A stretch of DNA of 64,000 nt from a virus: IMG/VR virus record IMGVR_UViG_3300035492_000062, positions 32,925-96,924 of that record. One strand, written 5' to 3'. The position numbers and the translations under genes were made by a program. Below, piece after piece: positions 35,272-55,916 of the stretch; within the stretch, counting starts at the first letter, position 1; the number at the start of each line of letters is the position of its first letter. Below the pieces are notes generated by a model, which was not told the origin of the DNA, did no database searches, and was given only the letters and a program-made list of their open reading frames with translations.

Positions 35272-36027
35272 TTAATGGACAGGTGCTACGATAACAGATA
35301 GTGGTTGTGCTGTCAATACAGCAGTACCAATATTTGTGATGAAGAATGAAACTTTCTTATCAACATCACACTCAGAAGACCGCTTAAGTGCTAACTTAAA
35401 GGATTCTAAATCCCACTGGGTAGTGGGAATATCACTCTCAGAAACATCGGATGGGAATGTTTCAACAAACGAATCACTTTCACCATCTGATACAGTAACA
35501 ATCAACTCACCATTGCCTGATTTAATGGAGATGCGGCGATTCTCGCGCTTACCAGTAAATGAGATGGAGTTGAATACTTCAGTCAGATAATCGATAAAAT
35601 CTTTACTAAATTCAATCACATCGCCATAAATCTCATACTCAGGCATCACTTTTGGAGCTAAGATGATGTTTGGATGTGACATGGTATAGGTTGCTTTACG
35701 CTTGCCTTCTTTGATCTCAATGGAAGAAACAAAGGTACTGCCATTTGATACGGTAACGGATGCTTTGTCTTCGTTAAAAAGAGCAAGACGACTCTGTAAG
35801 CCCTTGGTTGATGAGATTGCCATGGCTTTCTCTGACAGCTTACCTTCAACTTGGTCAAAGATCAAGATTGAGTGGTCTTTATTACCAGCTCGAACTTGTG
35901 TATGATCTTTTCCATCCAAAGTCACAGGCTCAATGATGGCCTCAGAGATGCCAAGTGTGGTTAATTGTTCAAGAATGTCTTTCAACATTCGCAGATCAAT
36001 ATTTGATTGTACGACTGGTTTAGTCAT
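35272..36027 (-). CDS. Sliding clamp (gp45-like)
   Basis: About 250 aa beta-rich; position among replisome genes. Confidence 0.55.
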   Translation of the reverse strand: MTKPVVQSNIDLRMLKDILEQLTTLGISEAIIEPVTLDGKDHTQVRAGNKDHSILIFDQVEGKLSEKAMAISSTKGLQSRLALFNEDKASVTVSNGSTFVSSIEIKEGKRKATYTMSHPNIILAPKVMPEYEIYGDVIEFSKDFIDYLTEVFNSISFTGKRENRRISIKSGNGELIVTVSDGESDSFVETFPSDVSESDIPTTQWDLESFKLALKRSSECDVDKKVSFFITNIGTAVLTAQPLSVIVAPVH

Positions 36028-39664: not shown

Positions 39665-40621
39665 CTACTCCTCATTCATCCATAGTCGCAATTTTATCTT
39701 TGCTTCTTGATAGTTGTCAACCAGAGAATTTTTTATTATCTTAGCAACCTCAATAATCCCCAAATTGCAGACAGCTTCATTCAAATCTTTGTATTTCCAG
39801 TTCGGAATAATCATTTTGCAGTTTGGGTAATCTTGCATTATCTGTAAAAAGTTGTCAGTGTTTCTGTCAGGGAGAATCCACCACTCTGGACAGTCTTTCA
39901 ACATATAAGCCTGTTTCTTTGATAGTTTGGAGTGCATTGTTGCCACTGTATTAGGAAAACACTTAGCATCAACAAACCCCTCTACGATGATTGGGATTCT
40001 GGGTACTGTTCTTTCTGGAAAGTACAAAACACCATCGTTTATGGTCTCTATGATATATTTTGGACCATTTGTACTTCTGGTGAAGATCTGAAACCCAATG
40101 ACCTTATCATAGTAGTACATAGCGCCAGCAATCAGATTTTTGTAAATTCCTGACTTAATGAAGTAAAAATCATTTAACTCTACGTGGCGGTTTGTTAGCG
40201 TTTCTCTCCAGCTCTTTGCAAAGTTGGATGAATCATCTACCAGTGGAACCCAATCTTCTGGTACGAGTATTTCTTGATAGCTGTTCTTCTCATAAAGTTC
40301 AAGATCAAGAGTGCGCTTAATTGCATCTGCCAATACATTTCGTTTTGCGTTGAGTGTCATTGGGATTTTAACACCTATTGCATCCATGAGATTGCGAAAT
40401 TTTCTACTAATCGGTGTGTCTATCTCGTATACAGTAGATGAACCACAAGACGCTCTGAAGCAGTTATAGATGATTTTGTCTTGTTCAAACTTGAAGCCAC
40501 CAGTCTTCCTATCGCTTTTACACATAGGACAAATCATGGTATGGAATCCAGTCGCTTCTTGTCTGGACATACCAATCGCACCAACTATGTCAGATTGTAG
40601 TCTTTGAAAATCTTTACTCAT
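39665..40621 (-). CDS. DNA primase (gp61-like)
   Basis: CPMC...CFRASC zinc finger; TOPRIM VEGFVDA, PDRN, KDLNEA. Confidence 0.85.
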   Translation of the reverse strand: MSKDFQRLQSDIVGAIGMSRQEATGFHTMICPMCKSDRKTGGFKFEQDKIIYNCFRASCGSSTVYEIDTPISRKFRNLMDAIGVKIPMTLNAKRNVLADAIKRTLDLELYEKNSYQEILVPEDWVPLVDDSSNFAKSWRETLTNRHVELNDFYFIKSGIYKNLIAGAMYYYDKVIGFQIFTRSTNGPKYIIETINDGVLYFPERTVPRIPIIVEGFVDAKCFPNTVATMHSKLSKKQAYMLKDCPEWWILPDRNTDNFLQIMQDYPNCKMIIPNWKYKDLNEAVCNLGIIEVAKIIKNSLVDNYQEAKIKLRLWMNEE

Positions 40622-41055: not shown

Positions 41056-41379
41056 ATGAGTGGTAATTTATTAGACATTATAGAGACAGAAGACAAAGTT
41101 TACAACTGTGTTATTGATTATATTTCAAAGCGCCAGATCATAATTTATGACCTGACTGGGATTAATGATGCGACTGTTAGATTATTGTTAATAAAATGGA
41201 AGATGAACTTCCCCAATCTTAGATTTTCTATTTTTAAATCAATATATTATCCAAACGTACCACTTAACAAACCAGTCATTCTATCACTAAAATCAGTAAA
41301 ATATTGCAATCGTTGTCTTAAACCCACCAAGCCAAAACGCTCGGTGGTTAAGATTGTTGCTTCACCAGACAATGCCTGA
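41056..41379 (+). CDS. Hypothetical protein, lone opposite-strand gene
   Basis: GAGG RBS; AATAAATA late-like motif upstream. Confidence 0.6.
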   Translation: MSGNLLDIIETEDKVYNCVIDYISKRQIIIYDLTGINDATVRLLLIKWKMNFPNLRFSIFKSIYYPNVPLNKPVILSLKSVKYCNRCLKPTKPKRSVVKIVASPDNA

Positions 41380-41970
41380 TGGATTTTTAAGTTTGTTCAT
41401 TACAGCCACAATCATAATAGCATACGCTATAGCGTGAGATTTTTTAAAATACGCTGTACCGTCTAATGGCCTACTGTATAACCTCTTCCTTACTGCAACT
41501 TGATTCTTTCTGTACTGGGGTATTAACCCAATCTTTGCAGGACGAATCAGAGCAATCATATCTGCAAGCTCTTCCACATTAGTCGGTTGGATTTTAACCA
41601 CAGTCTCATAGTGATTAGCTATGTGTGGTAGTCTCTGTACAAACAATTCATCCATCAACCAGTTCCAATCTGGCTCTGCTTCTGCTGCCCTAAGAACCTC
41701 GGTCTTTGTTTTGAAAATGTCATATGCTTTGTTGGTTAGAATATCCACCTTAGAAAATCCAACCTCATCCCCATACTTGTAGTCAAACGCACATAACCCA
41801 GTCACCGGATCAATTGGCACTGGCTCCAAATAAACGCCAGATGGATGTGGTAGGATTCTATGGGTCTCTTCGTTATAGACCATAGCACGAGTGCCATAGT
41901 CTTCTCTATTACACTGAGTGTTTACGTCTATGTCTACGTCAAAACTACGTCTCGCTAAGGACATACTCAA
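41362..41970 (-). CDS. DNA polymerase III alpha (DnaE)-like C-terminal fragment: catalytic palm/fingers
   Basis: FDVDIDV, HPSGVYL, KVDIL, IALIRPA, FKKSHAIAYA. Confidence 0.85.
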   Translation of the reverse strand: MSMSLARRSFDVDIDVNTQCNREDYGTRAMVYNEETHRILPHPSGVYLEPVPIDPVTGLCAFDYKYGDEVGFSKVDILTNKAYDIFKTKTEVLRAAEAEPDWNWLMDELFVQRLPHIANHYETVVKIQPTNVEELADMIALIRPAKIGLIPQYRKNQVAVRKRLYSRPLDGTAYFKKSHAIAYAIMIVAVMNKLKNPSGIVW

Positions 41971-42358
41971 TCATTTCCTCAATTTCTTCTTCAACAAAAT
42001 TATCATCAAAGAACCCAACTTTCAACTCTTCAAAAATATCTTCACCATCTAACCACCGGAAGTACTGTTCTAACTCCCAATCCTCTAGGTTATGGTAGCG
42101 TTTATTTCCCATAGCTGCCTTTATACCATCTTTTGATGCAACTTGACAATCTTTGTAAAGATATTCTGTAACGGAGAATAACGCATTGATAAATTCTTCA
42201 TAGAAGTGCATGTACTCACTAGAGATGTATCGAGCCACTTTGAAAGAGTACTTTGTTTTGTCTAGTGTACTGAGATTACTTTTGATGAATGCTTCTCGTA
42301 CTTCATTTAAAATAATTTTTCGTTCGTCTGGTGTTAATGTGATTGAGATTTGCGACAT
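41945..42358 (-). CDS. Hypothetical protein
   Basis: Packed ORF. Confidence 0.6.
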   Translation of the reverse strand: MSQISITLTPDERKIILNEVREAFIKSNLSTLDKTKYSFKVARYISSEYMHFYEEFINALFSVTEYLYKDCQVASKDGIKAAMGNKRYHNLEDWELEQYFRWLDGEDIFEELKVGFFDDNFVEEEIEEMIEYVLSET

Positions 42359-42359
42359 C

Positions 42360-42989
42360 CTAAACTCCTGATAAGAATTCTTGTAACAGTAAGAAATTTC
42401 CAGTACTCATATTTTCGAAAATATCTGGTCTGATTCTGGAAATGTATTCAAACGCCACCTTACCTTTAATTATAGCGGATTTCACAAACTCCTCATCTTC
42501 AAACTGTTCTTTGTGTTTCTGATAAAATTCTTTGGAACTGTTACCGATCATGATTACATGATGCTTTTGTAACCAAATCCGGTAACTATTTTTGTTGACA
42601 CTATCGACCACAGAAACAGCTTTCACAAAGTTGTCAATGTTTTTCTCCGCATAAATGTAGCATAAAAGAGAGTCAGGCGGGGTTTCAATTTCATAAGAGA
42701 AAATAATAAACCGCATGACCACATTATAAATCACACTCTTCCTAAACGCAGCTCTCGATAAATTGTACTCATTATCTTTCATGAATGATAAAGCAGCATC
42801 TTCATATACAGTGTCTGCACAAATTTCTTTCAAAGAAAAACACGTCATTTCGCTCATGTGGTTTTCTATGGTAGTCTTTTTCACTGCCTGTTTTCCACAC
42901 ACCGGACAGATGAACTTGTTTGTGATTGGATCTTGGATGATAGGTTTTTTAAAATATTGTTCTACATCGTTAAAAATGGAAAGTGACAT
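42360..42989 (-). CDS. Hypothetical zinc-finger protein
   Basis: FICPVCGK...IENHM..C. Confidence 0.6.
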   Translation of the reverse strand: MSLSIFNDVEQYFKKPIIQDPITNKFICPVCGKQAVKKTTIENHMSEMTCFSLKEICADTVYEDAALSFMKDNEYNLSRAAFRKSVIYNVVMRFIIFSYEIETPPDSLLCYIYAEKNIDNFVKAVSVVDSVNKNSYRIWLQKHHVIMIGNSSKEFYQKHKEQFEDEEFVKSAIIKGKVAFEYISRIRPDIFENMSTGNFLLLQEFLSGV

Positions 42990-42994
42990 CTTTT

Positions 42995-43420
42995 CTACTC
43001 CCTGTTTTCAAAGAACTTGGTTATTTGTGCTACTTCTTCTTTGGTTAAAACTTCTTTATACTCAGCAGCATCAGAATGTGTTACATTGTAAAACTTTGCA
43101 ATCATGTCGATTTCTGGCGTCTTTTCTGCTTTACCTTGTTTCTTAAACGCATAACGAGTGCGACTAATGCCCCCATTTGCTGCTATAAACAACTTTAGAA
43201 GTAACCGTGGGTGTTTGGATAGACTAAACACTTTATCAGGCACAGTATGCGCTACAGATAGCGTATGGATAGGTCTAACCGCTTTGTCTGTTGGTTGCCA
43301 CATGAGAAGAACATATGGTGACAGTTTCTTTACCTCTTCGTCAGACATATCATCAACATGACTAAGATCACCAGCATTCATTTTATTAAAAAAATCGAAA
43401 AGGTCTGAGTTGTTTGACAT
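42995..43420 (-). CDS. Clamp loader small subunit (gp62-like)
   Basis: DLFDFF...LSPYVLLMW...HPRLLLKL...IAKFYNV...A.EY; near gp44. Confidence 0.55.
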   Translation of the reverse strand: MSNNSDLFDFFNKMNAGDLSHVDDMSDEEVKKLSPYVLLMWQPTDKAVRPIHTLSVAHTVPDKVFSLSKHPRLLLKLFIAANGGISRTRYAFKKQGKAEKTPEIDMIAKFYNVTHSDAAEYKEVLTKEEVAQITKFFENRE

Positions 43421-43429
43421 AATATTATC

Positions 43430-43984
43430 CTAAAACCGATTCAGAATCTCTTGCTTGATTCTATCATCAGTGTGCAATTCTGCAACTTTTTTAGCGTGTT
43501 TCTGTTTTCTTTCAATCCAAGCAGCAACAGCCTTTTCTTCTGTATCAAAATACCCAACATGTTCTTGGACTACTGTAAACGGGTTTGAGCATCTGACATG
43601 AAACTTCTCTGATTGTTTTTGTTTCGTAAGACCAAGATGATTGCAGACTCCGATCTTAAACTCGGTGTTCTTGATGAAATGGTGAGTCGTTTTATCAAGA
43701 AATACCACAGTTTCTTCTGAATAATGAGTACCATCACCAAACAATACATTGTTTAGAACAAAATCTTCTTGGTAGTTTTCATCAAACCATTTCTTAAAAT
43801 TTGAGAATATCAGCCAATCAGGACTCATTGTATAGCCTGCATCTGGTTTGTGGTAGCACCGCTTCAGGATATTGCACCATGCTTTGTATGCTTTGCAGTA
43901 TACAATCTTACCACGTTCTATCCATTGTGTTGGTGTTGGGATATCTTTCACACCAACACCATAAAATCTAACACGCTTCGTCAT
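43430..43984 (-). CDS. HNH-type homing endonuclease-like protein (paralog of 562-1180), possibly degenerate
   Basis: YGVG...YKAWCNILKRCY...W..FSNFKKW...HYSEETVVF...CSNPF...VGYFDTEE.A..AW..RK. Confidence 0.65.
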   Translation of the reverse strand: MTKRVRFYGVGVKDIPTPTQWIERGKIVYCKAYKAWCNILKRCYHKPDAGYTMSPDWLIFSNFKKWFDENYQEDFVLNNVLFGDGTHYSEETVVFLDKTTHHFIKNTEFKIGVCNHLGLTKQKQSEKFHVRCSNPFTVVQEHVGYFDTEEKAVAAWIERKQKHAKKVAELHTDDRIKQEILNRF

Positions 43985-44926
43985 TTACTCTTCCATAAAA
44001 AAAAGTTCATAGATACATGCATCCAAAATAATTTGTTGGTTTGCAGTTCGAGTACCCATGTCCAAATACTTTGCAATTTTGATGATTGCCATAGCTGGAT
44101 CTGAGTATAGTTGGTGATTCTGGTAGAGTTGCGTATAGAACCAATCATAATTGGCATCGTCTACCAGATGAGTTAACTCAAGTAATTCTACAGGATCTAC
44201 ACTGTCTTTACTACATAATTGTTCCCACCTATCTAAGTCTTCAGATGCTTTTGTTTCGCCCATAGGTGCGTAAAGAGTTCTGAACCCGTTTCCATTATCA
44301 TCAAATGGAGATGATTGTTCAATAGAGTTTAAGATCTTGCGGAAATCTGGATAATACAGGTCAATGTGTGCCATGATGAAATCTGGATTATCATCTAATG
44401 GGAAAATCTCTTCTTTATCCAGAATCTCAATGACGCGATTAATCACATCATCAACATTGATACCATTTAAGTCCAACATTGTGAATCGACTCATCAGTGG
44501 TGCGGGAATGCGAGATATTGTGTTAGCCGTGGCAATGAATCGGATATAGTCTGAGAACTCTTCTGTGAGTTGTTTGAGTGCGTCAAATGCGTGTTTGGAT
44601 AAACGATCCATTTCTTCTAGGTGGACAATCTTGAATTTTCCAAGTGGTGCTTTCTTCATCCATGGAGCTAACTCTTCACGGATTGCAGCAATCCCAGTAT
44701 CTGCTGAGCAGGCCATAACCTTAAAATCAGCATCAGTTACACCTAATTCTTCTTTCAGTAGACGAGCCAATGTTGTTTTACCAAGTCCCTGTGAACCTAC
44801 CATCATCACATTGGGGATTGATTTCTCTTTCACCCACGACATGACAGTTTTCTTAATCTTTGGATTTTGAAAGATGTAATCTTCAATTTTCTTTGGACGA
44901 TATTTTTCTGCTAGTAGCTCTCTCAT
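43985..44926 (-). CDS. Clamp loader large subunit (gp44/RFC-like)
   Basis: LAEKYRP, GSQGLGKTT, LEEMD, SRF. Confidence 0.9.
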   Translation of the reverse strand: MRELLAEKYRPKKIEDYIFQNPKIKKTVMSWVKEKSIPNVMMVGSQGLGKTTLARLLKEELGVTDADFKVMACSADTGIAAIREELAPWMKKAPLGKFKIVHLEEMDRLSKHAFDALKQLTEEFSDYIRFIATANTISRIPAPLMSRFTMLDLNGINVDDVINRVIEILDKEEIFPLDDNPDFIMAHIDLYYPDFRKILNSIEQSSPFDDNGNGFRTLYAPMGETKASEDLDRWEQLCSKDSVDPVELLELTHLVDDANYDWFYTQLYQNHQLYSDPAMAIIKIAKYLDMGTRTANQQIILDACIYELFFMEE

Positions 44927-44936
44927 TTTGTTCTCC

Positions 44937-45332
44937 TTAAATATGCAGCATGGATAATGTTAGCATGAATTCTTCTTTGGCGCTATAATATTCTTCTTTT
45001 CTTGTTAGACATGAAACTTCGCAAATGAAATTTTCTTCACCACATTTTTCGAATACATTGTTTTCATAAAAGTATTTTATATGCTGAATGTCGGATACAT
45101 TGAAAATATTTGTTTCTTTTTCTGAAATTATGTAGAACGATGCTTCTTGTTCTTGTTCCCATCCATCTGTTCTATCCAAGCTCTCCCCTGTTTCAGTGAT
45201 CATTACTGATGAAACTTTTGGGATGATTTTATGATATTTTGCCAGTTTGTACTGGAGCAATCTCATAACTTTTGGGATGTCTTTTTGTTGAATTTTTTGT
45301 GCTAAAGAAAGGTAATCCATCTCTGCCTCCAA
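44937..45332 (-). CDS. Hypothetical protein
   Basis: ORF behind a sigma70-like promoter. Confidence 0.55.
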   Translation of the reverse strand: MEAEMDYLSLAQKIQQKDIPKVMRLLQYKLAKYHKIIPKVSSVMITETGESLDRTDGWEQEQEASFYIISEKETNIFNVSDIQHIKYFYENNVFEKCGEENFICEVSCLTRKEEYYSAKEEFMLTLSMLHI

Positions 45333-45346
45333 TGTAAATTTTCTAC

Positions 45347-45375
45347 AGTGTACCAGAGATGGATTTTTAGATCAA
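45347..45375 (-). promoter_or_regulatory. sigma70-like promoter
   Basis: Minus strand TTGATC-17 nt-TACACT. Confidence 0.5.
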
Positions 45376-45376
45376 C

Positions 45377-46159
45377 TTAAACAGTTGAAGTGAAGAAGCG
45401 ATTTCTTACGTTTTTGGTGAGTCGTGCTAACGACATAGTGTTATCTGATAAGAAGTTTTCGACCAGATCTTTCAGCTTCTGATTGTCTTCCACGCCATCT
45501 TGTACTTTTACATAAGTACCATCTTTGTAGCCAGATGATTGACGGATCTGGTTCAGTGTCATTTTTGCTGTATAGATTGCTGAAATCTCAAGAGATGTCA
45601 GACCAACACTTGCAACTAACTGGAGTAGAGCAGCATAAGACAGTCGGAACAGGTCTAAGTATGTGAAGTCTTCTCCACTTGTAAAAATACCTAAATCTCG
45701 CACAATGTCAACAAATGTTGTATAATTAATCCAACCGTCATTAGTGATCAGGTTCATGTCAAATGATTGGCCAGCTAGTTCTAATACATCAACACCTACA
45801 TACATGGTTTTGCCAAGTTCTGTTAGCTGTTGTTCTGCTTCCAAGCGATGATCACCACCCATGTGCTCCATTGCATTGCGTACTGCCAAGATTTGAGCAG
45901 AGATGATGAAGTGAATAGCATCAATAACTTCGATTTTGACATTCCATGTATCTATTTGATTTGTATCAGATTTCTTCCACCATTTATAAGAAACGCCTGA
46001 TTCTGTAACCAGCTCAGCAAGCTCTAAGATTGCTTGTGCTACATAATGACTCGGAGTCATACTGGATTTCCACTTTGGTACAGTGATTTCGTTCAAATAA
46101 TCTTGTGCTACCACAAGATCAGTAAAATTCATAATTCGTTCATTTAGCTGCATCTTCAT
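45377..46159 (-). CDS. Dimeric (all-alpha) dUTPase
   Basis: ELAEL...YKWWK...KIEVIDAIHF...Y.AK..LNQIRQSSGYKDGTY.K...EDN. Confidence 0.8.
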   Translation of the reverse strand: MKMQLNERIMNFTDLVVAQDYLNEITVPKWKSSMTPSHYVAQAILELAELVTESGVSYKWWKKSDTNQIDTWNVKIEVIDAIHFIISAQILAVRNAMEHMGGDHRLEAEQQLTELGKTMYVGVDVLELAGQSFDMNLITNDGWINYTTFVDIVRDLGIFTSGEDFTYLDLFRLSYAALLQLVASVGLTSLEISAIYTAKMTLNQIRQSSGYKDGTYVKVQDGVEDNQKLKDLVENFLSDNTMSLARLTKNVRNRFFTSTV

Positions 46160-46295
46160 ACACCTCTTTAAGTTGTGCTTGTAATTCTTGATATTCTTCA
46201 ATAGCTTGGTTTAAATCCTTCGTGGTCTTGTTGATGTAGTCACCAAGGATAGCTATCTTCGCATTCAGTTCTTGTATCACTCGTTTATGACTCAT
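46140..46295 (-). CDS. Small coiled-coil protein (51 aa, not in the ORF track)
   Basis: MSHKRVIQELNAKIAILGDYINKTTKDLNQAIEEYQELQAQLKEVYEDAAK* fills the gap between genes. Confidence 0.55.
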   Translation of the reverse strand: MSHKRVIQELNAKIAILGDYINKTTKDLNQAIEEYQELQAQLKEVYEDAAK

Positions 46296-46297
46296 TG

Positions 46298-46885
46298 TTA
46301 ATCCCCATCTGGTTCTGAGAATTCATTGAGAATTTTATGGTACACGTATGATGCGAAATCGTCAATACCATAATCATCATTATCAAGTAGTCGTATTGTC
46401 ATGTCTGGATGACAAGTAACCCATCCGCGAGAGTCATTAGACCAGTTACTCCCAAAACGGGACCATTGTAGAATGAGTACATTACTTCCACCAAACTCGT
46501 TTATAACTGCAATGGTTTCTTCATCAAACCCACCGTCAGTCACCAAGAAAAACTTATCAGTGATTCCGGTTTTTTTGATATTGTCGCACAGTGCTTTTCC
46601 AAAATAATCTTTTCCGTGTACTGGTTTTACCCATTCCTCAGAAATCTTAATCAGGTACTGGCGTTGGGATAATCCACCTAACTTATCCCATGGTTCTTCT
46701 TTCATAGAAGACTCATATCGTTCATCCCATTCTTGCTTAGGTATCATAGATACACATAAAGCTATCTCAATCAACTTCTCCTTGAAAGAAGCAATCTCGA
46801 CAGGCAATCCAACGTCTTTGAGATAGGACGCAACAGCGTCCTTTCCAGAGCGTTTTGGACAGTTGAAAATAATAATCTTAGGCAT
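46298..46885 (-). CDS. dNMP kinase (T4 gp1-like)
   Basis: FNCPKRSGKD, SFKEKL, RQYLIKISE, VTDGGF.EE. Confidence 0.75.
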   Translation of the reverse strand: MPKIIIFNCPKRSGKDAVASYLKDVGLPVEIASFKEKLIEIALCVSMIPKQEWDERYESSMKEEPWDKLGGLSQRQYLIKISEEWVKPVHGKDYFGKALCDNIKKTGITDKFFLVTDGGFDEETIAVINEFGGSNVLILQWSRFGSNWSNDSRGWVTCHPDMTIRLLDNDDYGIDDFASYVYHKILNEFSEPDGD

Positions 46886-48533
46886 ACTCTCTTCTCCATT
46901 TTCCATTTTTCATTGTAACCATTGTGCGTTTGAAGTTTTTATAGGTAATAATATGACTGTGACTCCATGAGGATGGCGATCCATCATTATACCCAAGTCG
47001 AAGTTTACTACATGTACCTGCCTGAAACACTCCATCATCAATACAAGCACTATGGCTATGGTTCAGGTTAACACGAGTGCCAATGTGTTTAAAACCTTTT
47101 GCAGAGCCTCTAGCGCCATTTGGACCTAAATGTCCATGATACCCACACTCGATATTACCAATAGTAAAACTTTCACCCTCGGACAAGAACTGTACGTCTT
47201 TTCTTGAAATGTCTGGTTGTAATAACTCCAACACATACTTGAACAGATGGAAGTCTTTATCTTGCCGTTCAATCGCTTTGTAAGTAGCAAGCTGACATTC
47301 TAGGAAGAATACGGCATTTGCTGGATCGTGTTTATAATCGGCAGTTTTTATCCACTTCATCAAAGCTAAGTCATGGTTTGCTTCCACTACCACAATTTTT
47401 GAGAATGGTCTTGACATCATGTTAAGAAAGTCTGCAACAAACTTGATCGAATCTCTGACAGAATCATCCTGTTTAATAAACTGGCTGAATCTGAAGTGTG
47501 GATCGTTAATGTTGTGATGATTCCTGACTTTAAAATCAGCAGTATCAGAAGCAAACTGAATTTTAGGTCTCAGGACATCCAACATATTATTTTTGTTTGC
47601 ATACATGATTGATTTTGATGGATAATCATACTTCAAGCCAAAAGCATTCAATGCTACGACCGGATCAACTACTTCTAAATGCAGGTCTCCCCAGTTGATC
47701 GCTGCAACATTATCTGTTGCTTTTGCATATCCGTGTGGCGCATAGAAGTAATCTAGGTCATAAAATGTTCCGTCTTCCTCAGAAGCGTTGATCTGTCTGA
47801 CAAATGAATCACCGTCTTCATCTACCTCAACAATCAATGCACCAAAAATGTGATGGTATGCTGCTTTCTGACCTGCTTTCTGCTCGATATAGTTCAATCT
47901 AGTTACTGCACCAGATGTGTACAAATGTCGTGCACCTGATGATATTGGTGCTGCAAGTGGCTTCATGCGCTGCTTAGTGTGTGGGATGATACCAGAGCGA
48001 TTCCCGCAATAACTCTCGAACCCAGATTCTGGACAGCCTGCGGTGGGTAGAATATTCATCTCACCACAGAAGATCAAATCATCCGCTAAAAGCAAACGCT
48101 CGTTGCAAATGTAGGGTTTAATCTTCGGATCGTACCAAATATCTTTACCCCCCTCACCGTTCTGAAACCCATTTTTGTTATAAATGAATGTAGAGATCAA
48201 TAGCTCAGCACCTCTATGTTCACATAACCTCAGTAATGAATCGAAGAACTGCTTATGGATTGCAGTATTATTCTGAGCAGATGTGATGACAAATGTTTTA
48301 TTCTTGCCATACAGTCTGGTGGATGGTTCATAAGGTTTTTTATGACCAGCACTAAACGTTGGTTTTTCGTCATACACTAACCAGAAATCTTTATAAGAAC
48401 GCCTCATATAGAAATCACGGATGGTTGTGTCTGGAATGCCCAACTCTGCTGAGATCTTGCGGAATGCATACTTCTCTACATCCCGCAAGCGAATTATTTC
48501 ATGCATATCGTGGTCGTTTAAAACTCTCTTCAC
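46878..48533 (-). CDS. HTH plus metallophosphoesterase-like protein
   Basis: N-terminal HTH (FRKISAELGIPDTTIRD); GDLH, NHH, ANHD, HGHLG, HSHS. Confidence 0.65.
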   Translation of the reverse strand: MKRVLNDHDMHEIIRLRDVEKYAFRKISAELGIPDTTIRDFYMRRSYKDFWLVYDEKPTFSAGHKKPYEPSTRLYGKNKTFVITSAQNNTAIHKQFFDSLLRLCEHRGAELLISTFIYNKNGFQNGEGGKDIWYDPKIKPYICNERLLLADDLIFCGEMNILPTAGCPESGFESYCGNRSGIIPHTKQRMKPLAAPISSGARHLYTSGAVTRLNYIEQKAGQKAAYHHIFGALIVEVDEDGDSFVRQINASEEDGTFYDLDYFYAPHGYAKATDNVAAINWGDLHLEVVDPVVALNAFGLKYDYPSKSIMYANKNNMLDVLRPKIQFASDTADFKVRNHHNINDPHFRFSQFIKQDDSVRDSIKFVADFLNMMSRPFSKIVVVEANHDLALMKWIKTADYKHDPANAVFFLECQLATYKAIERQDKDFHLFKYVLELLQPDISRKDVQFLSEGESFTIGNIECGYHGHLGPNGARGSAKGFKHIGTRVNLNHSHSACIDDGVFQAGTCSKLRLGYNDGSPSSWSHSHIITYKNFKRTMVTMKNGKWRREYA

Positions 48534-48545
48534 GATAACTCCCTT

Positions 48546-49706
48546 TTAGATTGCTACAGTAAGATGTGTCATCGCTCGACTACATCCTGTGTAACGATAT
48601 CTTCTTTGATCAATGAAGTATGAAACATCTTCATCAATAAAGAGTACTTTTTCGAAAGAAGAACCTTGGCATCGGTGCGAGCTAAGAGCATACCCAAAAC
48701 CAAATTGATTCATTCCAGAATCACGAGAATATTTCTCTGGTACTCTTTCGGTAATCCAAGTCTCATTGGCAACAGTTACCCATACATTAACATCTCTGTC
48801 TAAGGATTGCAAGTTATATCTGTTCTCATCGTTTGAAAGTTTCATTATTCCAGAGATCTTGAATCTTTCCCCGTTTGAGATCTTTGTATTACTGACCACA
48901 TCATTTCTAAGACAAACTACAACCTCACCAATCTCTGGAGTATCTTCATAGAATCCCTTTGCCGAACGAATGAGTTCATTGAGTTTTTTTCTTGTCTTGT
49001 TTGTACCACAAATCACAACATCAAACTCATTTTCTTGGTGGAATTTTAGTGTCATGGGTTCAGATTTTCTGATCATTGTCAGACCTTCTTTTTTTACCCT
49101 TGGAAAAGAATTTGCTTTTCTTAAATGAGCACAAATAAATCCAATACCAGAATTCTCATCAAATCGCCGGATTTTTGTTAGTGAAACTACTGGAGCAGAA
49201 AGACTTACCATTGGGTTGAAGTCTTTTAAATCACCCTTTGATTCATCATTAATCGGTTCTAGTTGATCATAGTCGCCACAGATAATCACTGGTCTTCCGA
49301 TAGTCATAATATCGTTGTACATGGTGTAATTAACCATTGAACCTTCGTCCACTGCGATGATATCGCCAACATCATCTTGGATTTCTTGTGCAGTTCTTTT
49401 ATCCCAGCGAATAAGATTGCCCTTTAAGTCAAGAACAGGTTTATATAGATAAGAGTGACATGTACCAGCGACTAATCCGGTTTTAGCCAACTGCCCAGCA
49501 GCACGTCCAGCTAAAGCCATACAAGACAACGAAAGACCTGCATCACTTAAAAACTTTCCAAGTGCTCTAAGTACAGTCGTTTTACCAGTACCCCCAGCTG
49601 CACGAAATACGACTACATTGTTCTTTTTATTGATGATAAGATCCATGATCTTATGAAAAGCCTGTTTCTGGTCATCAAATAAATCGTTGTACATTTTTCC
49701 TCCCAA
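48546..49706 (-). CDS. SF1B Dda/RecD-like helicase
   Basis: AAGGTGKTT, VDEGSM, GDYDQL, LTKIRR, YALSSHRCQGS, YTGCSRA. Confidence 0.88.
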   Translation of the reverse strand: MGGKMYNDLFDDQKQAFHKIMDLIINKKNNVVVFRAAGGTGKTTVLRALGKFLSDAGLSLSCMALAGRAAGQLAKTGLVAGTCHSYLYKPVLDLKGNLIRWDKRTAQEIQDDVGDIIAVDEGSMVNYTMYNDIMTIGRPVIICGDYDQLEPINDESKGDLKDFNPMVSLSAPVVSLTKIRRFDENSGIGFICAHLRKANSFPRVKKEGLTMIRKSEPMTLKFHQENEFDVVICGTNKTRKKLNELIRSAKGFYEDTPEIGEVVVCLRNDVVSNTKISNGERFKISGIMKLSNDENRYNLQSLDRDVNVWVTVANETWITERVPEKYSRDSGMNQFGFGYALSSHRCQGSSFEKVLFIDEDVSYFIDQRRYRYTGCSRAMTHLTVAI

Positions 49707-49721
49707 TGGGAAGAAAGAGGA

Positions 49722-50054
49722 TTACTCCTCTTCTTCACTCACAGTTGTTTGCGTTTGGATGTTTGTCGGGTTAGATACTTTGTGCTTACGAGATACATCA
49801 AGCAATTCTTCATTAAGCTGAACAAGGCGTTCTGCTTTCTCCAACACCTTACTTTGCTTGTCCCCAAATCGCTCAGCAACCAGTGCATTAAAGTCTGCTG
49901 ATGGAAATGCTAACTCTTCTTTTGCACGTTCTGCGACATCTTTCATGAAAGACTTCAAGTCTTTGATTTTCTCAAGTGCAACTACACACTCGCGCACCAT
50001 GCCATCTAACTTCAGCTTATCAGCTGGATTTGAAAAAGTTGGAATATCGCTCAT
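49722..50054 (-). CDS. dsDNA-binding protein (T4 DsbA-like)
   Basis: KIKDL...KDVAERAKEEL...FNAL pattern. Confidence 0.5.
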   Translation of the reverse strand: MSDIPTFSNPADKLKLDGMVRECVVALEKIKDLKSFMKDVAERAKEELAFPSADFNALVAERFGDKQSKVLEKAERLVQLNEELLDVSRKHKVSNPTNIQTQTTVSEEEE

Positions 50055-50064
50055 TTATGTCTCC

Positions 50065-50310
50065 TTAAATTTGGCCGTTGTTGTGTTTGTTTAAAATACC
50101 TTCCAGCTCATTCAGGCGCTCCCATTGATAGTGATTTGGGAAGAAGTTGAAGCCGTAGTCTTTTATTTCTTTAAACAACCAAGAAACTTGAACTTGAGTT
50201 TGTTTTGACAAATCTTTTAACTGACGAAATTTACGAGTCAGATAGTTGTAACGCAACTCTGCCGATGAAGTGTGTGGTTGATTCTTTTTGAACTTGTTGT
50301 TTGCTTTCAT
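50065..50310 (-). CDS. Hypothetical protein
   Basis: Packed ORF. Confidence 0.5.
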   Translation of the reverse strand: MKANNKFKKNQPHTSSAELRYNYLTRKFRQLKDLSKQTQVQVSWLFKEIKDYGFNFFPNHYQWERLNELEGILNKHNNGQI

Positions 50311-50313
50311 AGG

Positions 50314-51495
50314 TTATACCTCTATTCTTACTGTTTTAGTGTTGTCTTGTCTGAACATTGTTCCAGACGGTGTTATTAAGAAAATTGTTTCACATAAAAT
50401 TGGTGCTTTTATTTTTGGGATGTCGCCGTCTGTATAAATCACACATACATCAATACCTTCATCTAAGAATAATCTGTTTGCTTCATCAACGATTGCCGTC
50501 ATGTCTGTACCACCGCCACCTATAAACGTCTTATTGATGTTTTCAAAGGTATCACCATTTTCCGATTTATAGTGGCCTAATGTATGTGCTTTTACATCAC
50601 ACGTAATTAAAATCAACTCCCACTCTTCATACTGGTTCAGAATTTCATATATACCACCTAATGCTATCCTAAGTTCTTCTTCACTCATAGACCCAGATGT
50701 GTCTACCCCAAAAACAACTCTAACAAACTCACCAACACGCTTAGGAAAAAGAATCGTTCCGCTTAACTTGTTGTATTTGTTATAAGTATACCGCTGAAAA
50801 GAATTTCTGTCTACCTCTGTTTTCAAAAAATCTTTCCAATTGATCTTAGGTTTAACAATATCAGCCAGCGTTCGTAAAATACCAGCCTCTGTATCACCTA
50901 TACCACTACCCATAGAGCCACCGACAACTACAGCAGAAGTAATGTCTCTACGTAATTGAGATTCTTGCTCTTCAGTGCTCCAACTATCTCCGATTTCATC
51001 AAAAAGGTCATCTTCTGAGTAAGAATCAGCATCTTTCAACAGTTCATCATAAATCTCATCAGCAGACATCCCAATGAATTTAGACTCATATAAACCAATT
51101 CTTGGCATAGAGAGATATTTTACGATACGCTGATCTTGCATTTGTCTTTTTGTATTCACATCGACACTGTACCCTTTGAGAGTATAGTTGATGAAGTAGT
51201 CTGTTGCAATATTCCAAAGAATTGGATTGTAGTTGCAATCCTTCATCCTACCGAAGTGAAGTAGAAAGATATGCATGACCTCATGAAATAGAAGAAATGC
51301 TCGCTCACTGTGATTCAGAGAGTTCCAAAATTTCTCCCCAATCTCAATCTTATACTGGTTGTTAATCATAGTTGCTCTGGCAGTTTGACACTCACCATAA
51401 GAAACATCAAATTTAAACAACAAGTATGCAAGCATTGGCATTGCAATTGCACAGGTTGCTCTTACACTGGCCAGATCTTCTACTTCTCTCATCAT
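50314..51495 (-). CDS. Metallopeptidase-like plus vWA protein (DUF2201-like)
   Basis: HEVMH, WNIATDYFIN, VDTSGSMS, GGGGTD, YTDG. Confidence 0.85.
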   Translation of the reverse strand: MMREVEDLASVRATCAIAMPMLAYLLFKFDVSYGECQTARATMINNQYKIEIGEKFWNSLNHSERAFLLFHEVMHIFLLHFGRMKDCNYNPILWNIATDYFINYTLKGYSVDVNTKRQMQDQRIVKYLSMPRIGLYESKFIGMSADEIYDELLKDADSYSEDDLFDEIGDSWSTEEQESQLRRDITSAVVVGGSMGSGIGDTEAGILRTLADIVKPKINWKDFLKTEVDRNSFQRYTYNKYNKLSGTILFPKRVGEFVRVVFGVDTSGSMSEEELRIALGGIYEILNQYEEWELILITCDVKAHTLGHYKSENGDTFENINKTFIGGGGTDMTAIVDEANRLFLDEGIDVCVIYTDGDIPKIKAPILCETIFLITPSGTMFRQDNTKTVRIEV

Positions 51496-52607
51496 TTAAC
51501 TCTCGAAGCAATTGGTTGATAGAGTTTCATCAGTTCTGGATAAGACAGTACTTTTAACAAGTACCCCAACCCAATACTCTTGATAAGTTTAAACAAAACC
51601 ACCCGATGGTCAATCTCTAAATTCGAAATAATTGCAGAAAGATGCCCCACGTATTCAGAATCTTGATCATCCATAGCCACTACAACTTCTCGACTTAGTG
51701 CAGTCATAACGTAATAACGTTCTGCAATTCCAGTAGGAAGTGTATAGGTCATACCAGCACGAACATCGTCCCATTTCGGGAGAATTGACTCAAACTCCAT
51801 GAAAGCCATAAATTCACTACCAATTGCTGAACCGACTGTACCAGCAATCATAGCAGTCTTTAGTTCAGTAGGGAGATTTGCACCATCAACCAGATTCTCA
51901 TGCAACATTTCCCATGTACGGGATGTAGCGAATGCTGGCTCGTTCGCGTAAGAAACGTTCAATGCATCTCGCTTGTATGAGATGAATGAAATGATGCGCA
52001 TATCCAGATTCTTTGCATAAGCATATCGAATAAAATCATCAACACAGCGATCTTTGTCAATTTGTAAGTGTACGCTAAACCGGTTTGCCAATGCTGGCAA
52101 CACATCACGAGCACCAGTGTTGTCTGATTTTAAGTTACCTGCTGCAACAATCCAGACATTATCACCCAATTTCTTACCGTTGTTGATGCTGCGATCAAGC
52201 ACCAGTCGATATGCAGCTTGTTGAATTGATGGATGTGCGTTCGGTAGTTCATCTAAGAACAAAATATAAAACACATCTGGATTGTTATCAGGAAACCAAG
52301 AGGGAGTAGAGAAGTACATCTCAGTCTGATCATCTTTCTTCTCTGTAGGTAAAAATGGAATGCCCATCAGAGAAGCAGGATCATCAAATGCACTCAGACG
52401 AAGATCAATCAGCACGACCTTCTTGTACTTAGTTTTTGACTTGATGTCTTCTACTGTGTCTTGAATAATAGTTGATTTACCAAGACCCATTGAGCCATGT
52501 ATGAAAGTGTTTCGAGGGACACGGCCTGAGTTGATTGCTGAGATTGTCAACTCTCGCAAAATATCATAAGCTTCAGTAATAGAAACTGAGTAGAGTGGCT
52601 TATTCAT
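51492..52607 (-). CDS. MoxR-like AAA+ ATPase
   Basis: GSMGLGKS, IDLRLS, LFLDELP, AAGN, ALANRF. Confidence 0.88.
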   Translation of the reverse strand: MNKPLYSVSITEAYDILRELTISAINSGRVPRNTFIHGSMGLGKSTIIQDTVEDIKSKTKYKKVVLIDLRLSAFDDPASLMGIPFLPTEKKDDQTEMYFSTPSWFPDNNPDVFYILFLDELPNAHPSIQQAAYRLVLDRSINNGKKLGDNVWIVAAGNLKSDNTGARDVLPALANRFSVHLQIDKDRCVDDFIRYAYAKNLDMRIISFISYKRDALNVSYANEPAFATSRTWEMLHENLVDGANLPTELKTAMIAGTVGSAIGSEFMAFMEFESILPKWDDVRAGMTYTLPTGIAERYYVMTALSREVVVAMDDQDSEYVGHLSAIISNLEIDHRVVLFKLIKSIGLGYLLKVLSYPELMKLYQPIASRVK

Positions 52608-52619
52608 TTAAAAACTTCC

Positions 52620-52925
52620 TTAGATTTTAATCATGGAGTTAAAGGTGTCTCGATCAATCTTGTTAATCGAGGATTCTTTTTCATTATAAATGAAATAATA
52701 AGAAGATGAAAGTAAAATATCACCATCTTTGATTGGTGGTTGGGTATCTTCGTCAATGACGATCTTGAGTGATTCGGAAGTCATAATAGCTTCTGACTGT
52801 TTGGTGAAATTGCTTTCACCAGCATCTAAGATTGCAAAGACTTTATCTCCAATACCGTTCACTCTATTCTCATCAAAGCGAAACCAGATGCTGGGTAAAA
52901 AATTTGACATGAGTTTATTCCTCAA
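52620..52925 (-). CDS. Hypothetical protein
   Basis: Packed ORF. Confidence 0.5.
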   Translation of the reverse strand: MRNKLMSNFLPSIWFRFDENRVNGIGDKVFAILDAGESNFTKQSEAIMTSESLKIVIDEDTQPPIKDGDILLSSSYYFIYNEKESSINKIDRDTFNSMIKI

Positions 52926-53208
52926 TTATTGCTGAAAGTTCTTTTTCGGATGTGATTGCTACTTTTACAATTTTACCATTCTCGTCACGTAAGTCAAATG
53001 GTTGTGTAATTTTTCTCCAATCTCCAACTACGATATCACCTTCTTTAACATACTTACACTGTTCACCAGCTTTTAAAATGATGTAATGGTGATGTGTATC
53101 AGAATCAGCAGTGTCTTTTACAAAGATAACACCTTTCTGTTCTTCTGGACGGCGGATCAGTAATACATCATCGCGTAGTGGTTTAAAATTCTCAATTGTT
53201 GACGTCAT
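52915..53208 (-). CDS. GroES-like co-chaperonin
   Basis: FKPLRDDVLLIR...GVIFV...ILKAGEQCKYVKEGDIV...SEKELSAII. Confidence 0.75.
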   Translation of the reverse strand: MTSTIENFKPLRDDVLLIRRPEEQKGVIFVKDTADSDTHHHYIILKAGEQCKYVKEGDIVVGDWRKITQPFDLRDENGKIVKVAITSEKELSAIIEE

Positions 53209-53459
53209 TGTTTAATGTCTCCCATAAATTTTTCTCGTTTCGCTTGTTGTAGTTCAGGAAATTCAGACCAACCATATGTGTTGTCTGGATTTTTCCATAG
53301 ATAAACCTTTTCCATCTCCATACCAGAAGATACATAAACAATCTCATACTCTTCTCGGTTGGTATTATTGGGTACAACGTTAATTCCTAGAATACGCACC
53401 TTTTCAGAAAAACGCAAGATGCATTCTTGAATGTTCTCGTCTAAATCAGATAATTGCAT
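53205..53459 (-). CDS. Hypothetical protein
   Basis: Packed ORF. Confidence 0.5.
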   Translation of the reverse strand: MQLSDLDENIQECILRFSEKVRILGINVVPNNTNREEYEIVYVSSGMEMEKVYLWKNPDNTYGWSEFPELQQAKREKFMGDIKQ

Positions 53460-53971
53460 TACATCTCCTTAGATAATTCGTGGAACTTAATTCCATATTT
53501 TAATGGGTTAACATCAGTTATCTCAAGAAGATAGAACACCAATGATGCACATGATGACCCGCGACCTACTCCCCACACTATACCACGTTCTTTGAATTTT
53601 TCAATAAGATCCATGCAATAAAAAACAAAAAAGATATTTTTTGTCCTAGAAAAGAACTCAATCTCTTCTTCTATGCGTTTATTCATAGACTCTGAGTCAA
53701 CATAGCGAGGTGATGTTAGAATTATATACATCAACACATCAAGATCTGCTGGTTCATGGTCGTGTGATTCAGATGGTTCTGGTCTCTCGTCAACCACTTC
53801 AACAGAAATGTTTGTCTGGTTTAGATAATCATATGTCTGACTATGGAAGTCAGAAATGACAGCATCTGCAACTTCTTCACCTAACAGAATTTTTCTTGCC
53901 AAAGAAAAAGAGTCTACCATTGAGACTCCATTTCTTAACAATATTCTACCGTTGTTCCGGTCTTTGTACAT
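53459..53971 (-). CDS. DNA polymerase III alpha (DnaE)-like N-terminal fragment
   Basis: RIEEEI...GIVWGVGRGSSCASLVFYLLEITDVNPLKYGIKF. Confidence 0.85.
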   Translation of the reverse strand: MYKDRNNGRILLRNGVSMVDSFSLARKILLGEEVADAVISDFHSQTYDYLNQTNISVEVVDERPEPSESHDHEPADLDVLMYIILTSPRYVDSESMNKRIEEEIEFFSRTKNIFFVFYCMDLIEKFKERGIVWGVGRGSSCASLVFYLLEITDVNPLKYGIKFHELSKEM

Positions 53972-53979
53972 TTATACCT

Positions 53980-54450
53980 CTATACAAAATCGTATGCATT
54001 CATCTCTTTAGTTGTTTTCCACTGATCCGTTCGAGAAAGTAACACAACACGCTTCTTACACTCAGACAAAATTGGGATGATATTATTTGTGTTCGGCCAG
54101 AAATGCTTCTTCATTCTAGCATCAATCACCGTTATCGAGTCATTATCCGGTGTTGATAGATTTTTGTCAAATGATAATGCATCTACATCCCTACCAATAA
54201 TCTCATCTACCAACATTGAGTCTACAGTACCATACTCGTCTGCCAGTACAATATAAAGACCAGATGGGATCTGAAACATTGCGTTACCAATCTTCAAAAA
54301 ATAAATCATTGAATAAACTTCTTCCCACGAAAACGTTCTTAATAGAAAGAAATCGCTCTGGTCAGTCTTGAATTCAAACATTTCTTTTGCAACACACGAA
54401 ATATCATCTAAACGATTGTGGTTGTCCTCTGTACCTAAAAAATAACTCAT
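53980..54450 (-). CDS. Hypothetical protein
   Basis: Coupled to uvsW. Confidence 0.6.
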   Translation of the reverse strand: MSYFLGTEDNHNRLDDISCVAKEMFEFKTDQSDFFLLRTFSWEEVYSMIYFLKIGNAMFQIPSGLYIVLADEYGTVDSMLVDEIIGRDVDALSFDKNLSTPDNDSITVIDARMKKHFWPNTNNIIPILSECKKRVVLLSRTDQWKTTKEMNAYDFV

Positions 54451-55916
54451 TACACACTTATCCTTACTTCTTGCTTGGAGAAGACGAACTTCTCTCGCTT
54501 ATAAATCTTCTGTCTTGCTTTCCTATGTTCTACAGCATACAGAGTGTTTGCAGAAATATCAACTACATGACACTTATTTTCTTCACCATCCAGACGGATA
54601 CCACGGCCAATTCCTTGTAGTACGTTGGTTTCATCCTTACCTGAGTCTACTAGAATAACACGATGGATCATGTTCTGTGAGATACCAGTTGCAGATGTAT
54701 CAAAAGATGCAACAACTATCTCAGTACCTTTCTTAGCAAACTTAGAAAAAAGTTCGTCCCGTGTCTCATTTGGAACGTCTTTATTGATGCAAATTGTCCC
54801 AAAGATTTTTGCTATATGCTGGCCTAGTTCTGGTCTACATAAAACGAGTGTATTCATTGGCTCAAGCGTAGAGATGTAGTCACAAATAGGTTTGGCACGT
54901 TTCTCCATACCGTAATAGCGTTCTTCCTTAGCCCAGTTCCATGCATTGACTCTCACCATGTCTTTTGTGGCAAATTCATCAACAGCCTGATCTTCTAAGA
55001 CGACAAAATCTATCTGGAAGTTTGATGCGTAACCCTTTTCCTGTAACTCTTTAACGGAAACTTTCATCAACTCCCCACCGCCAAGTGAACCGAAAATCTT
55101 TGCACATTTCAACTTGTCCTTTGGTACTGTACCAGTCATACCGATACGAATTGGAGCAGTTGTGAGATTGTATTTGAAAGCGTCAAACATTGTCTCGCCA
55201 AAAATATGCACTTCATCATACAGAATCATCAATGAAATTTCGTTAAAGAAGTCTGGATTCCCTTCATCTTCAACGTACTTGATCAGGTTGTTTAATAAAC
55301 TAGACGTAATAATGATATTTTTGCTCTTAGAGAACATTTTAAGACGGTCTGCATTAGTCTTGATATTTGTACCAACGACAGCAGCTTGTATCCCACAATC
55401 AACATAAGACTGTAGCGTCTGCTTTGCAAGTTTAACATTAGGGACGATAATAAGACCCGTAAGTCCATGTTCGTTAAAGTATTTTGATAGTGCTACACAT
55501 ATTAGACTCTTGCCAGCGTTAGTCGCCAAGTTAAGAACACCACATTTTTTAACAATCACTCGATTAATTGCATCCGTCTGGTGGGTTCTAAATTTAACAG
55601 GTGCCAAATAATTCTCATCAACCAACACTGGTTCATACTCAAAAACATATTCTCGTTCATCTACAAACTCTACGTCTTCCTCACCATAGCCCAACTCAGC
55701 CAACATATCCATTATGTCGTCTAAAAAGTATGCATAGGTGAATCCGTCTGGAGTCATGAGAGGTTCCATACCATCATCCATCTTCATCTGGTATGCAACA
55801 GTCATAAAAGCGCCAGCACGAGGCAATTTTAAACTCTCATAAATCATCTTAAAATGTTTTTTTGGAAGTCCTGCTACATGAGCATTCACTTCATCCAACA
55901 ATGTGATGGTTATCAT
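54450..55916 (-). CDS. uvsW: UvsW-like SF2 helicase
   Basis: RTHQ, ATNAGKS, DEVH, GMTGT, TGIS, QGIGRGIR. Confidence 0.88.
   Translation of the reverse strand: MITITLLDEVNAHVAGLPKKHFKMIYESLKLPRAGAFMTVAYQMKMDDGMEPLMTPDGFTYAYFLDDIMDMLAELGYGEEDVEFVDEREYVFEYEPVLVDENYLAPVKFRTHQTDAINRVIVKKCGVLNLATNAGKSLICVALSKYFNEHGLTGLIIVPNVKLAKQTLQSYVDCGIQAAVVGTNIKTNADRLKMFSKSKNIIITSSLLNNLIKYVEDEGNPDFFNEISLMILYDEVHIFGETMFDAFKYNLTTAPIRIGMTGTVPKDKLKCAKIFGSLGGGELMKVSVKELQEKGYASNFQIDFVVLEDQAVDEFATKDMVRVNAWNWAKEERYYGMEKRAKPICDYISTLEPMNTLVLCRPELGQHIAKIFGTICINKDVPNETRDELFSKFAKKGTEIVVASFDTSATGISQNMIHRVILVDSGKDETNVLQGIGRGIRLDGEENKCHVVDISANTLYAVEHRKARQKIYKREKFVFSKQEVRISV

Follow-up and report, generated by a model that had tools for sequence, protein, structure and literature searches.

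A split, minimal DNA polymerase III α as a probable auxiliary polymerase of a T4-type phage replication module

Can two short genes that lie more than 11 kb apart on a phage genome encode a single DNA polymerase between them? The question is raised by a 64,000-nucleotide stretch of viral DNA (positions 32,925 to 96,924 of IMG/VR record IMGVR_UViG_3300035492_000062; hereafter the window), in which an initial annotation, made without database searches, had read two open reading frames (ORFs) as the halves of an intein-free, minimal DnaE-type polymerase. We found both ORFs in place and with the motifs ascribed to them, on the minus strand, which the annotation had left unstated. The N-terminal half (N-half; 53459-53971, minus strand, 170 amino acids (aa), P0001) ends in the stretch GVGRGSS...HELSKEM, and the C-terminal half (C-half; 41362-41970, minus strand, 202 aa counted from a TTG start, P0002) begins with (M)SMSLARRSFDVDIDV and carries HPSGVYL, KVDIL and FKKSHAIAYA further downstream. 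We consider it probable that the two genes specify the subunits of a non-spliced, heterodimeric mini form of the α subunit of DNA polymerase III (Pol III α), acting as an auxiliary polymerase of a T4-type replication module.

The N-half is connected to cellular Pol III α by its sequence. It matches the Pfam family DNA_pol3_alpha (PF07733, E 8.6e-15) as well as phrog_11127 (E 4.8e-20), and phmmer aligns it without gaps to residues 321-390 of E. coli Pol III α (E 8.5e-7), placing R137, G138 and S139 on R362, G363 and S364 of the bacterial enzyme. The fold matches of its AlphaFold model (predicted local distance difference test, pLDDT, 89.8) in the PDB are all family C polymerases, and residues 64-170 superpose on E. 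coli α 274-395 with Z-scores of 11-14 and a root-mean-square deviation of 2.5-2.8 Å over 104-105 aligned residues. This region is the helical, nucleotide-binding palm subdomain of Pol III α, with W-G-V-G-R-G-S-S as its phosphate-binding loop. Residues 1-63 form a small α/β extension without a Pol III counterpart, which is specific to the family and conserved within it (G15 at 94%); for the N-terminal 66 residues, the ESM Atlas yielded no credible relative outside the protein's own family.

For the C-half, the sequence link to cellular Pol III is weak. The protein belongs to phrog_11778 (E 1.7e-47), matches PF17657 weakly (E 0.002), returns nothing from the PDB in a plain phmmer search and, as a profile, reaches Pol III α there at E 0.3 only; its assignment therefore rests on motifs and fold. 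The profile alignment puts its ALIRP on ALFRPGP (636-642) and its FKKSH-AYA on FNKSHSAAYA (756-765) of E. coli α. In the AlphaFold model (pLDDT 94), whose top 17 fold matches in the PDB are all Pol III α or PolC, 184-196 of the 202 residues align with these polymerases at a Z-score of about 10, and 187-191 residues align across E. coli α 394-781, a span of 388 residues. The catalytic aspartates are all kept, as initially annotated, with D11, D13 and D15 corresponding to D401, D403 and D405 of the E. coli protein, and K74 and D76 to K553 and D555. The finger motifs RPxK and FKKSH are retained as well, K177, H179 and Y183 being the equivalents of K758, H760 and Y764. Deleted relative to Pol III α are roughly 100 finger residues and the thumb, which we take to span about residues 433-510 of E. 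coli α; in the C-half, some 26 residues separate the DxD strand from the HPSG strand. Judged from its model, the C-half unites the metal-binding portion of the Pol III α palm with a shortened finger module. For both halves, every significant fold match is a family C polymerase, and the family identity of the pair as a split minimal Pol III α is near certain.

Each half is present as a single copy in the IMG/VR record (99 kb, estimated completeness 63%), and 11,489 bp with 17 minus-strand genes lie between the two. The N-half gene starts with ATG, with GAGG 5 nucleotides (nt) upstream, and the C-half gene with TTG, with GAGGAA upstream and an ATG two codons further on. Public gene calls are shorter at the N-terminus, giving 153 aa for the N-half (P0123) and 173 aa for the C-half (P0003); as the latter call begins past the catalytic DxD, automatic annotation of the record would miss the active site. 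In favour of the longer reading of the C-half, homologues measure 195-205 aa and their N-terminus is conserved. Domain searches and fold alignments bore out that PHP, OB and C-terminal domains are lacking, and added the thumb to the missing parts: no PHP domain was found in the 99-kb record or in three complete relatives, and the C-half stops at about E. coli residue 781, without a C-terminal β-clamp-binding, OB or τ-binding domain.

If the two proteins are to form one enzyme, they have to associate. Complex prediction for N-half and C-half gave an interaction prediction score from aligned errors (ipSAE) of 0.88, compared to 0.11 for the best of three controls; of 80 solved complexes, 58 attain the mark applied to this score, as do 2 of 110 mismatched pairs, counts that hold roughly, own alignments having been used. 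Three runs shared at least 92% of their contacts, with a partner pLDDT of at least 87. On the N-half, the contacts of lowest error involve W133-G-V and the GRGS loop; their counterparts on the C-half are residues 14-17, Y83, F86 and K89. As these positions adjoin the catalytic aspartates, the model predicts a composite active site. The N-terminal extension is predicted to pack on the C-half too, N-half residues 2-17 contacting C-half residues 61-63.

The same two units also occur naturally in one chain. P0265 (375 aa; L015:1066-2193) consists of an N-part at residues 8-183, detected by the N-half profile at E 7.5e-31, and a C-part at 189-374, and P0358 (336 aa; within L016:1516-4181, on an 8-kb JGI metagenome contig) is a second single chain, which does without the 63-residue N-terminal extension. 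With the halves joined in the expected order, these proteins show that the halves form one module. The initial proposal of a heterodimer is thus supported both by controlled complex prediction and by natural fusions, and heterodimer formation appears likely from the predicted structure. A search with the fused P0358 brought up no additional fused relatives. P0265 and P0358 are each closest to a different split protein (46% and 42% identity), and a tree of the C-half domain, in which 6 of 102 branches are well supported, does not separate an ancestral from a secondary origin of the unsplit forms. The start of the P0358 gene overlaps the stop of a gene for a 552-aa Replicase-family protein (PF03090, E 2.5e-13) with a helix-turn-helix domain, so that the two are translationally coupled; the Replicase family is, we presume, of the archaeo-eukaryotic primase type. 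P0358 and its Replicase neighbour may constitute a minimal primase-plus-polymerase replication module, and P0358 may be the sole polymerase of its element. The element is small and also carries a PG_binding_1 gene.

Is the split form under selection, and how far does it reach? Each half has hundreds of metagenomic homologues of constant size, and a profile search with the C-half, covering 1.84 billion representative sequences, returned 410 clusters at 50% identity, almost all of 185-215 aa. Throughout 105 N-halves of 20-70% identity, R99, E103, W133-G-V-G-R-G-S-S140 and S143 are invariant; the same is true of D11, D13, H42, D54, D76, N80, Y83, P115, R143, P144, K146, Y153, K176, H179 and A184 in 119 C-halves, where D15 is conserved at 99%. 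Relaxed selection on the catalytic aspartates, named at the outset as an observation that would speak against the proposed polymerase, was looked for and not seen, and the homologues show no frameshifts, stops or neutral substitution at these residues. The family is therefore widespread and under strong selection.

Among isolates, the Alishewanella phages Slicko01 and Slickus01 come closest to the present phage, their two halves being 55% and 72% identical to those of the window; Slickus01 is a circular genome of 141.6 kb with the same gene order, in which both halves are annotated as 'hypothetical'. Homologues are also found in RaK2, XacN1, Atu_ph07 and PA5oct. RefSeq labels the C-halves of RaK2, GAP32 and K64-1 'DNA polymerase', and PHROGs v4 applies this label to both phrog_11127 and phrog_11778. 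RaK2, XacN1 and the Alishewanella phage each encode a single N-half, a single C-half and a family B polymerase; a PHP domain is absent from all three. The distance between N-half and C-half is about 11 kb in the Alishewanella phages, about 15 kb in XacN1, 33 kb in RaK2 and 182 kb in Atu_ph07. RaK2 ORF120, which occupies a position like that of the N-half in the window, proved not to be an N-half (hhalign E 0.33); the genuine one lies 33 kb downstream.

The initial annotation had suspected that similar fragments might already be annotated in jumbo phages, and this is so: a 'minimal, split DNA polymerase III alpha' has been described, and read in the same way, from sequence (Iyer, Anantharaman, Krishnan, Burroughs, Aravind 2021; Viruses 13:63, PMC7824862), so that the feature itself is not new. 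In that study, 'group 2.2' jumbo phages encode the split Pol III α alongside a family B polymerase, and cooperation of the two enzymes in the synthesis of one strand or in repair is suggested (PMC7824862). The systems of this group (RaK2/GAP32/PA5oct/XacN1/Atu_ph07-like) share with ours an NTP-binding N unit and a Mg- and template-binding C unit encoded by non-adjacent genes; like ours, they have no further Pol III domains, and their genomes contain a family B polymerase along with a T4-type clamp loader and a pair of MoxR and vWA-peptidase genes. They differ from ours in their jumbo genomes. Although the homologues do occur in jumbo phages, the jumbo setting assumed for the present phage did not hold: its nearest complete relatives have 141-142 kb and related contigs 142-161 kb, and we estimate it to be an uncultured, T4-like phage of about 150 kb, below the jumbo range (>200 kb). 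A second difference concerns the layout, the genes being distant in group 2.2, whereas in the window and in most uncultured relatives they flank the clamp-loader genes in fixed order.

This order emerged from a survey of 80 IMG/VR loci with a C-half, which is 35-57% identical to that of the window; the loci come from related phages, and their counts are not independent events. In 36 of them an N-half lies within 10 kb of the C-half, without exception on the same strand, upstream of the C-half by 0.76-9.2 kb and as an ORF of its own, and 35 of these 36 loci have the order N-half, gp44, gp62, C-half. By single-sequence searches, whose counts are lower bounds, 67 of the 80 loci have a gp62-like gene upstream of the C-half and 17-18 have homologues of the window's primase and helicase downstream of it, while UvsW-like homologues lie upstream in 11 related loci; in RaK2, primase and helicase genes are equally placed downstream of the C-half. 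Our analysis thereby adds three points to the description of the family: a large clade of non-jumbo, T4-like phages of ~140-160 kb typically carries it; its usual layout is N-half, clamp-loader genes, C-half, rather than 'distant genes'; and rare unsplit forms exist, one of them beside a primase-type replicase. The fixed position around the clamp-loader genes offers a concrete hypothesis about partners, and the cultivable 141-kb Alishewanella phages, together with P0265 and P0358, provide simpler biochemical material than jumbo phages.

How might such an enzyme work? The helical palm of the N-half would hold the triphosphate of the incoming nucleotide with its GRGS loop, while the C-half would contribute the β-strands with the metal-binding aspartates and a short finger module holding nucleotide and template. 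Assembling without splicing, the two proteins would create one Pol-β-fold active site across their interface, and we regard catalytic activity of the pair as likely. A family B polymerase, for which the initial annotation had advised looking elsewhere in the genome, is indeed encoded in the record, outside the window, and in the three complete relatives. As the phage thus has a replicative polymerase of its own, the mini enzyme would play an auxiliary part in the T4-type replication module, as a DNA polymerase of low processivity. Primer extension, gap filling or repair may be among its tasks, and it could be recruited via the clamp or the clamp-loader proteins, whose genes it flanks.

Compared to bacterial DnaE/Pol III α and PolC (2HNH, 2HPI, 3E0D, 3F2B), the phage pair has the same Pol-β-type palm, Asp triad, GRGS, K-x-D, RPG and F-x-K-S-H motifs (Z 10-14). 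The bacterial enzymes, however, are single chains of more than 1100 aa, whereas the phage pair comprises ~370 aa in two chains, lacks PHP, thumb, ring and little finger, (HhH)2/β-binding, OB and τ-binding parts, and adds the 63-aa extension and a family-specific interface Trp; nor is it the main replicase. With two chains adding up to ~370 residues, it would be the smallest family C polymerase core known so far.

Several points weigh against this view of the pair. With no thumb and no known element for binding duplex DNA or the clamp, templated synthesis by the pair alone is not assured. We looked at the C-terminus of the C-half for a clamp-binding tail common to the phage's own family B polymerase and saw none; close relatives do have a hydrophobic-x-Trp tail on the C-half, which is absent from the C-terminus of the phage's own family B polymerase and not retained in distant members. 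The halves of a split gene can score well by their likeness to solved single-chain Pol III α, in which case the score shows likeness rather than binding, and part of the complex score may stem from structures of this kind that the model has learnt. As to the conserved gene order, T4-like replication modules could have inherited it as synteny without functional meaning. Finally, our literature searches returned no experimental study of a split minimal Pol III α; a split phage polymerase is the subject of a 2026 preprint, but the protein in question is the family B enzyme of PhiKZ, which is unrelated.

Against this background, it has to be asked whether the two ORFs might be something other than the subunits of a working polymerase. 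Two genes running from N to C on one strand and separated by unrelated genes, with most of a normal DnaE missing, are also what a dnaE gene broken by insertions and decaying without function would leave behind. Such remnants, however, are hardly compatible with hundreds of homologues of constant length, whose catalytic and interface residues are invariant at 20-80% identity, with the intact starts and ribosome-binding sites of both genes, or with their confident fold models, and this explanation is extremely improbable. The split point is identical in all homologues: N-halves end within a few residues of E-F-x-K, and C-halves begin a few residues before F-D-V-D-I-D, which suggests a single split that is old and fixed in position. 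On E. coli α, this break falls between residues ~395 (end of the N-half) and ~394 (start of the C-half) and thus just before the catalytic DxD, where the initial annotation had placed it. Naturally split DnaE proteins that are joined by split inteins are known from cyanobacteria and some phages, and the phage halves might likewise be united after translation, by trans-splicing or another ligation. Yet the N-half aligns to Pol III α through its last residue, 170, and the C-half from residue ~3; as Pol III-equivalent sequence reaches right up to the break in both proteins, there is no room for intein pieces. Neither a Pfam search of both halves for intein domains nor an inspection for split-intein motifs gave any, and the junction offers no conserved Cys/Ser/Thr nucleophile motif context. 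The claim that the pair is intein-free therefore stands, and we give post-translational joining next to no credence.

If the halves do assemble, they could still do something other than templated DNA synthesis. What remains of Pol III α once the thumb, the clamp-binding domain and ~100 finger residues are gone, a palm with a helical module, resembles the minimal layout of Pol-β-fold nucleotidyltransferases, and the phage already possesses a complete replicative polymerase. The heterodimer might accordingly be a template-independent tailing enzyme, synthesize RNA or primers, or make a nucleotide signal or counter-signal, like many minimal enzymes with a Pol-β fold. We nevertheless deem this unlikely: the finger motifs that hold template and nucleotide, RPxK and FKKSH (with H179 equivalent to E. 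coli H760), are invariant, all significant fold matches are replicative family C polymerases, and the genes reside in a replication module among helicase, clamp-loader and primase genes. Eukaryotic replisomes contain inactive polymerase-like subunits, a precedent for a pair that would be an accessory of the replisome, keeping the polymerase fold for a structural or regulatory role without catalysis. In homologues that have become inactive, however, the metal ligands are usually lost, whereas here D11, D13, D76 and the GRGS loop are invariant family-wide, which makes an accessory of this kind very unlikely. The auxiliary mini Pol III α hence remains our preferred reading.

A more specific version of this reading would make the mini Pol III α a second replisome polymerase, tied to clamp loader and primase, which extends primers or fills gaps and hands over to the family B enzyme. 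The conserved order of N-half, gp44, gp62 and C-half, the primase and helicase genes downstream, and the coupling of P0358 to a Replicase all hint in this direction; we put it forward as a tentative and rather doubtful idea. There are precedents for such a division of labour: DnaE of B. subtilis acts beside PolC, and eukaryotic Pol α beside Pol δ/ε, the second polymerase extending primers before the hand-off. The likeness, a functional analogy only, lies in a simpler second polymerase beside the main replicase, near primase, helicase and clamp-loader genes. If the idea is true, a T4-type replisome runs with two polymerase families, as do the replication systems of Bacillus (DnaE/PolC) and eukaryotes (Pol α/δ).

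The neighbourhood of the two genes is that of a T4-type replication module, and Pfam and PHROG matches confirmed the clamp loader, primase and helicase reported as neighbours at first reading. Between the halves lie genes for a gp44-like clamp-loader AAA+ subunit (43985-44926, minus strand) and a gp62-like clamp-loader small subunit (42995-43420, minus strand; weak PF16790 match), and downstream of the C-half those for a primase-like protein (39665-40621, minus strand) and a gp41/DnaB-like helicase (38337-39662, minus strand). The clamp gene is located at 35272-36027. A UvsW-like helicase gene (54450-55916, minus strand) is found two genes upstream of the N-half, and genes for DsbA and a Dda-like helicase are likewise present in the window near the halves. 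The interval between the halves also holds a MoxR-like AAA+ gene (51492-52607, minus strand) and, next after it, one encoding a metallopeptidase-vWA fusion (50314-51495, minus strand); a chaperone/co-chaperone pair of MoxR and peptidase-vWA is typical of group 2.2 jumbo phages (PMC7824862). A DnaQ-type (ε) exonuclease was not found in the 99-kb record, which is 63% complete; XacN1 has an annotated ε-type exonuclease in the vicinity of its C-half, and RaK2 has one close to UvsW.

The family B polymerase of the record (gp43-type) is itself encoded in two consecutive ORFs of 578 and 316 aa (G000:C1, ~17.2-19.8 kb). It is likewise split in Slickus01 (578 and 322 aa) and a single ORF in RaK2 (1003 aa) and XacN1 (882 aa). 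T4-like 'genes in pieces' are known from gp43A/B of Aeh1 and from nrdA-a/b, and the two-ORF family B polymerase recalls the gp43A/gp43B arrangement of some T4-like phages. The split Pol III α has in common with such genes, and with intein-split DnaE, that a polymerase arises from two separate genes. It differs in having neither intein halves nor a mobile endonuclease at the break, and, compared to the genes in pieces, in a break that is ancient, family-wide and fixed in position rather than a recent, lineage-specific insertion.

At its 3' end, the C-half gene shares 18 nt with a small ORF on the opposite strand (41056-41379, plus strand, 107 aa). Homologues of this ORF are found in 18 related loci, likewise opposite in strand to the C-half gene and either next to it or overlapping it, and a reverse gene takes the equal position in the Alishewanella phage, in locus L019 and in RaK2 (ORF125w). 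The product has no PHROG match and no detectable similarity to RaK2 ORF125w.

Between the gp44-like and gp62-like genes, and separating them, lies an ORF for a probable truncated HNH homing endonuclease (43430-43984, minus strand, 184 aa), which matches residues 199-384 of the 420 in phrog_953 (E 5.8e-45) and hence only the C-terminal half of this HNH family; by its sequence, it is probably the remnant of a mobile endonuclease inserted into the clamp-loader operon. Further upstream, the product of a 551-aa gene (46878-48533, minus strand) has no Pfam match and matches the 'DNA transfer protein' family phrog_1745 (E 1.7e-179). It adjoins a dNMP-kinase-like gene (46298-46906) and lies near a gene for a MazG/dUTPase_2-like pyrophosphohydrolase (45377-46201), so that a gene of the phrog_1745 type sits amid a cluster for replication and nucleotide metabolism.

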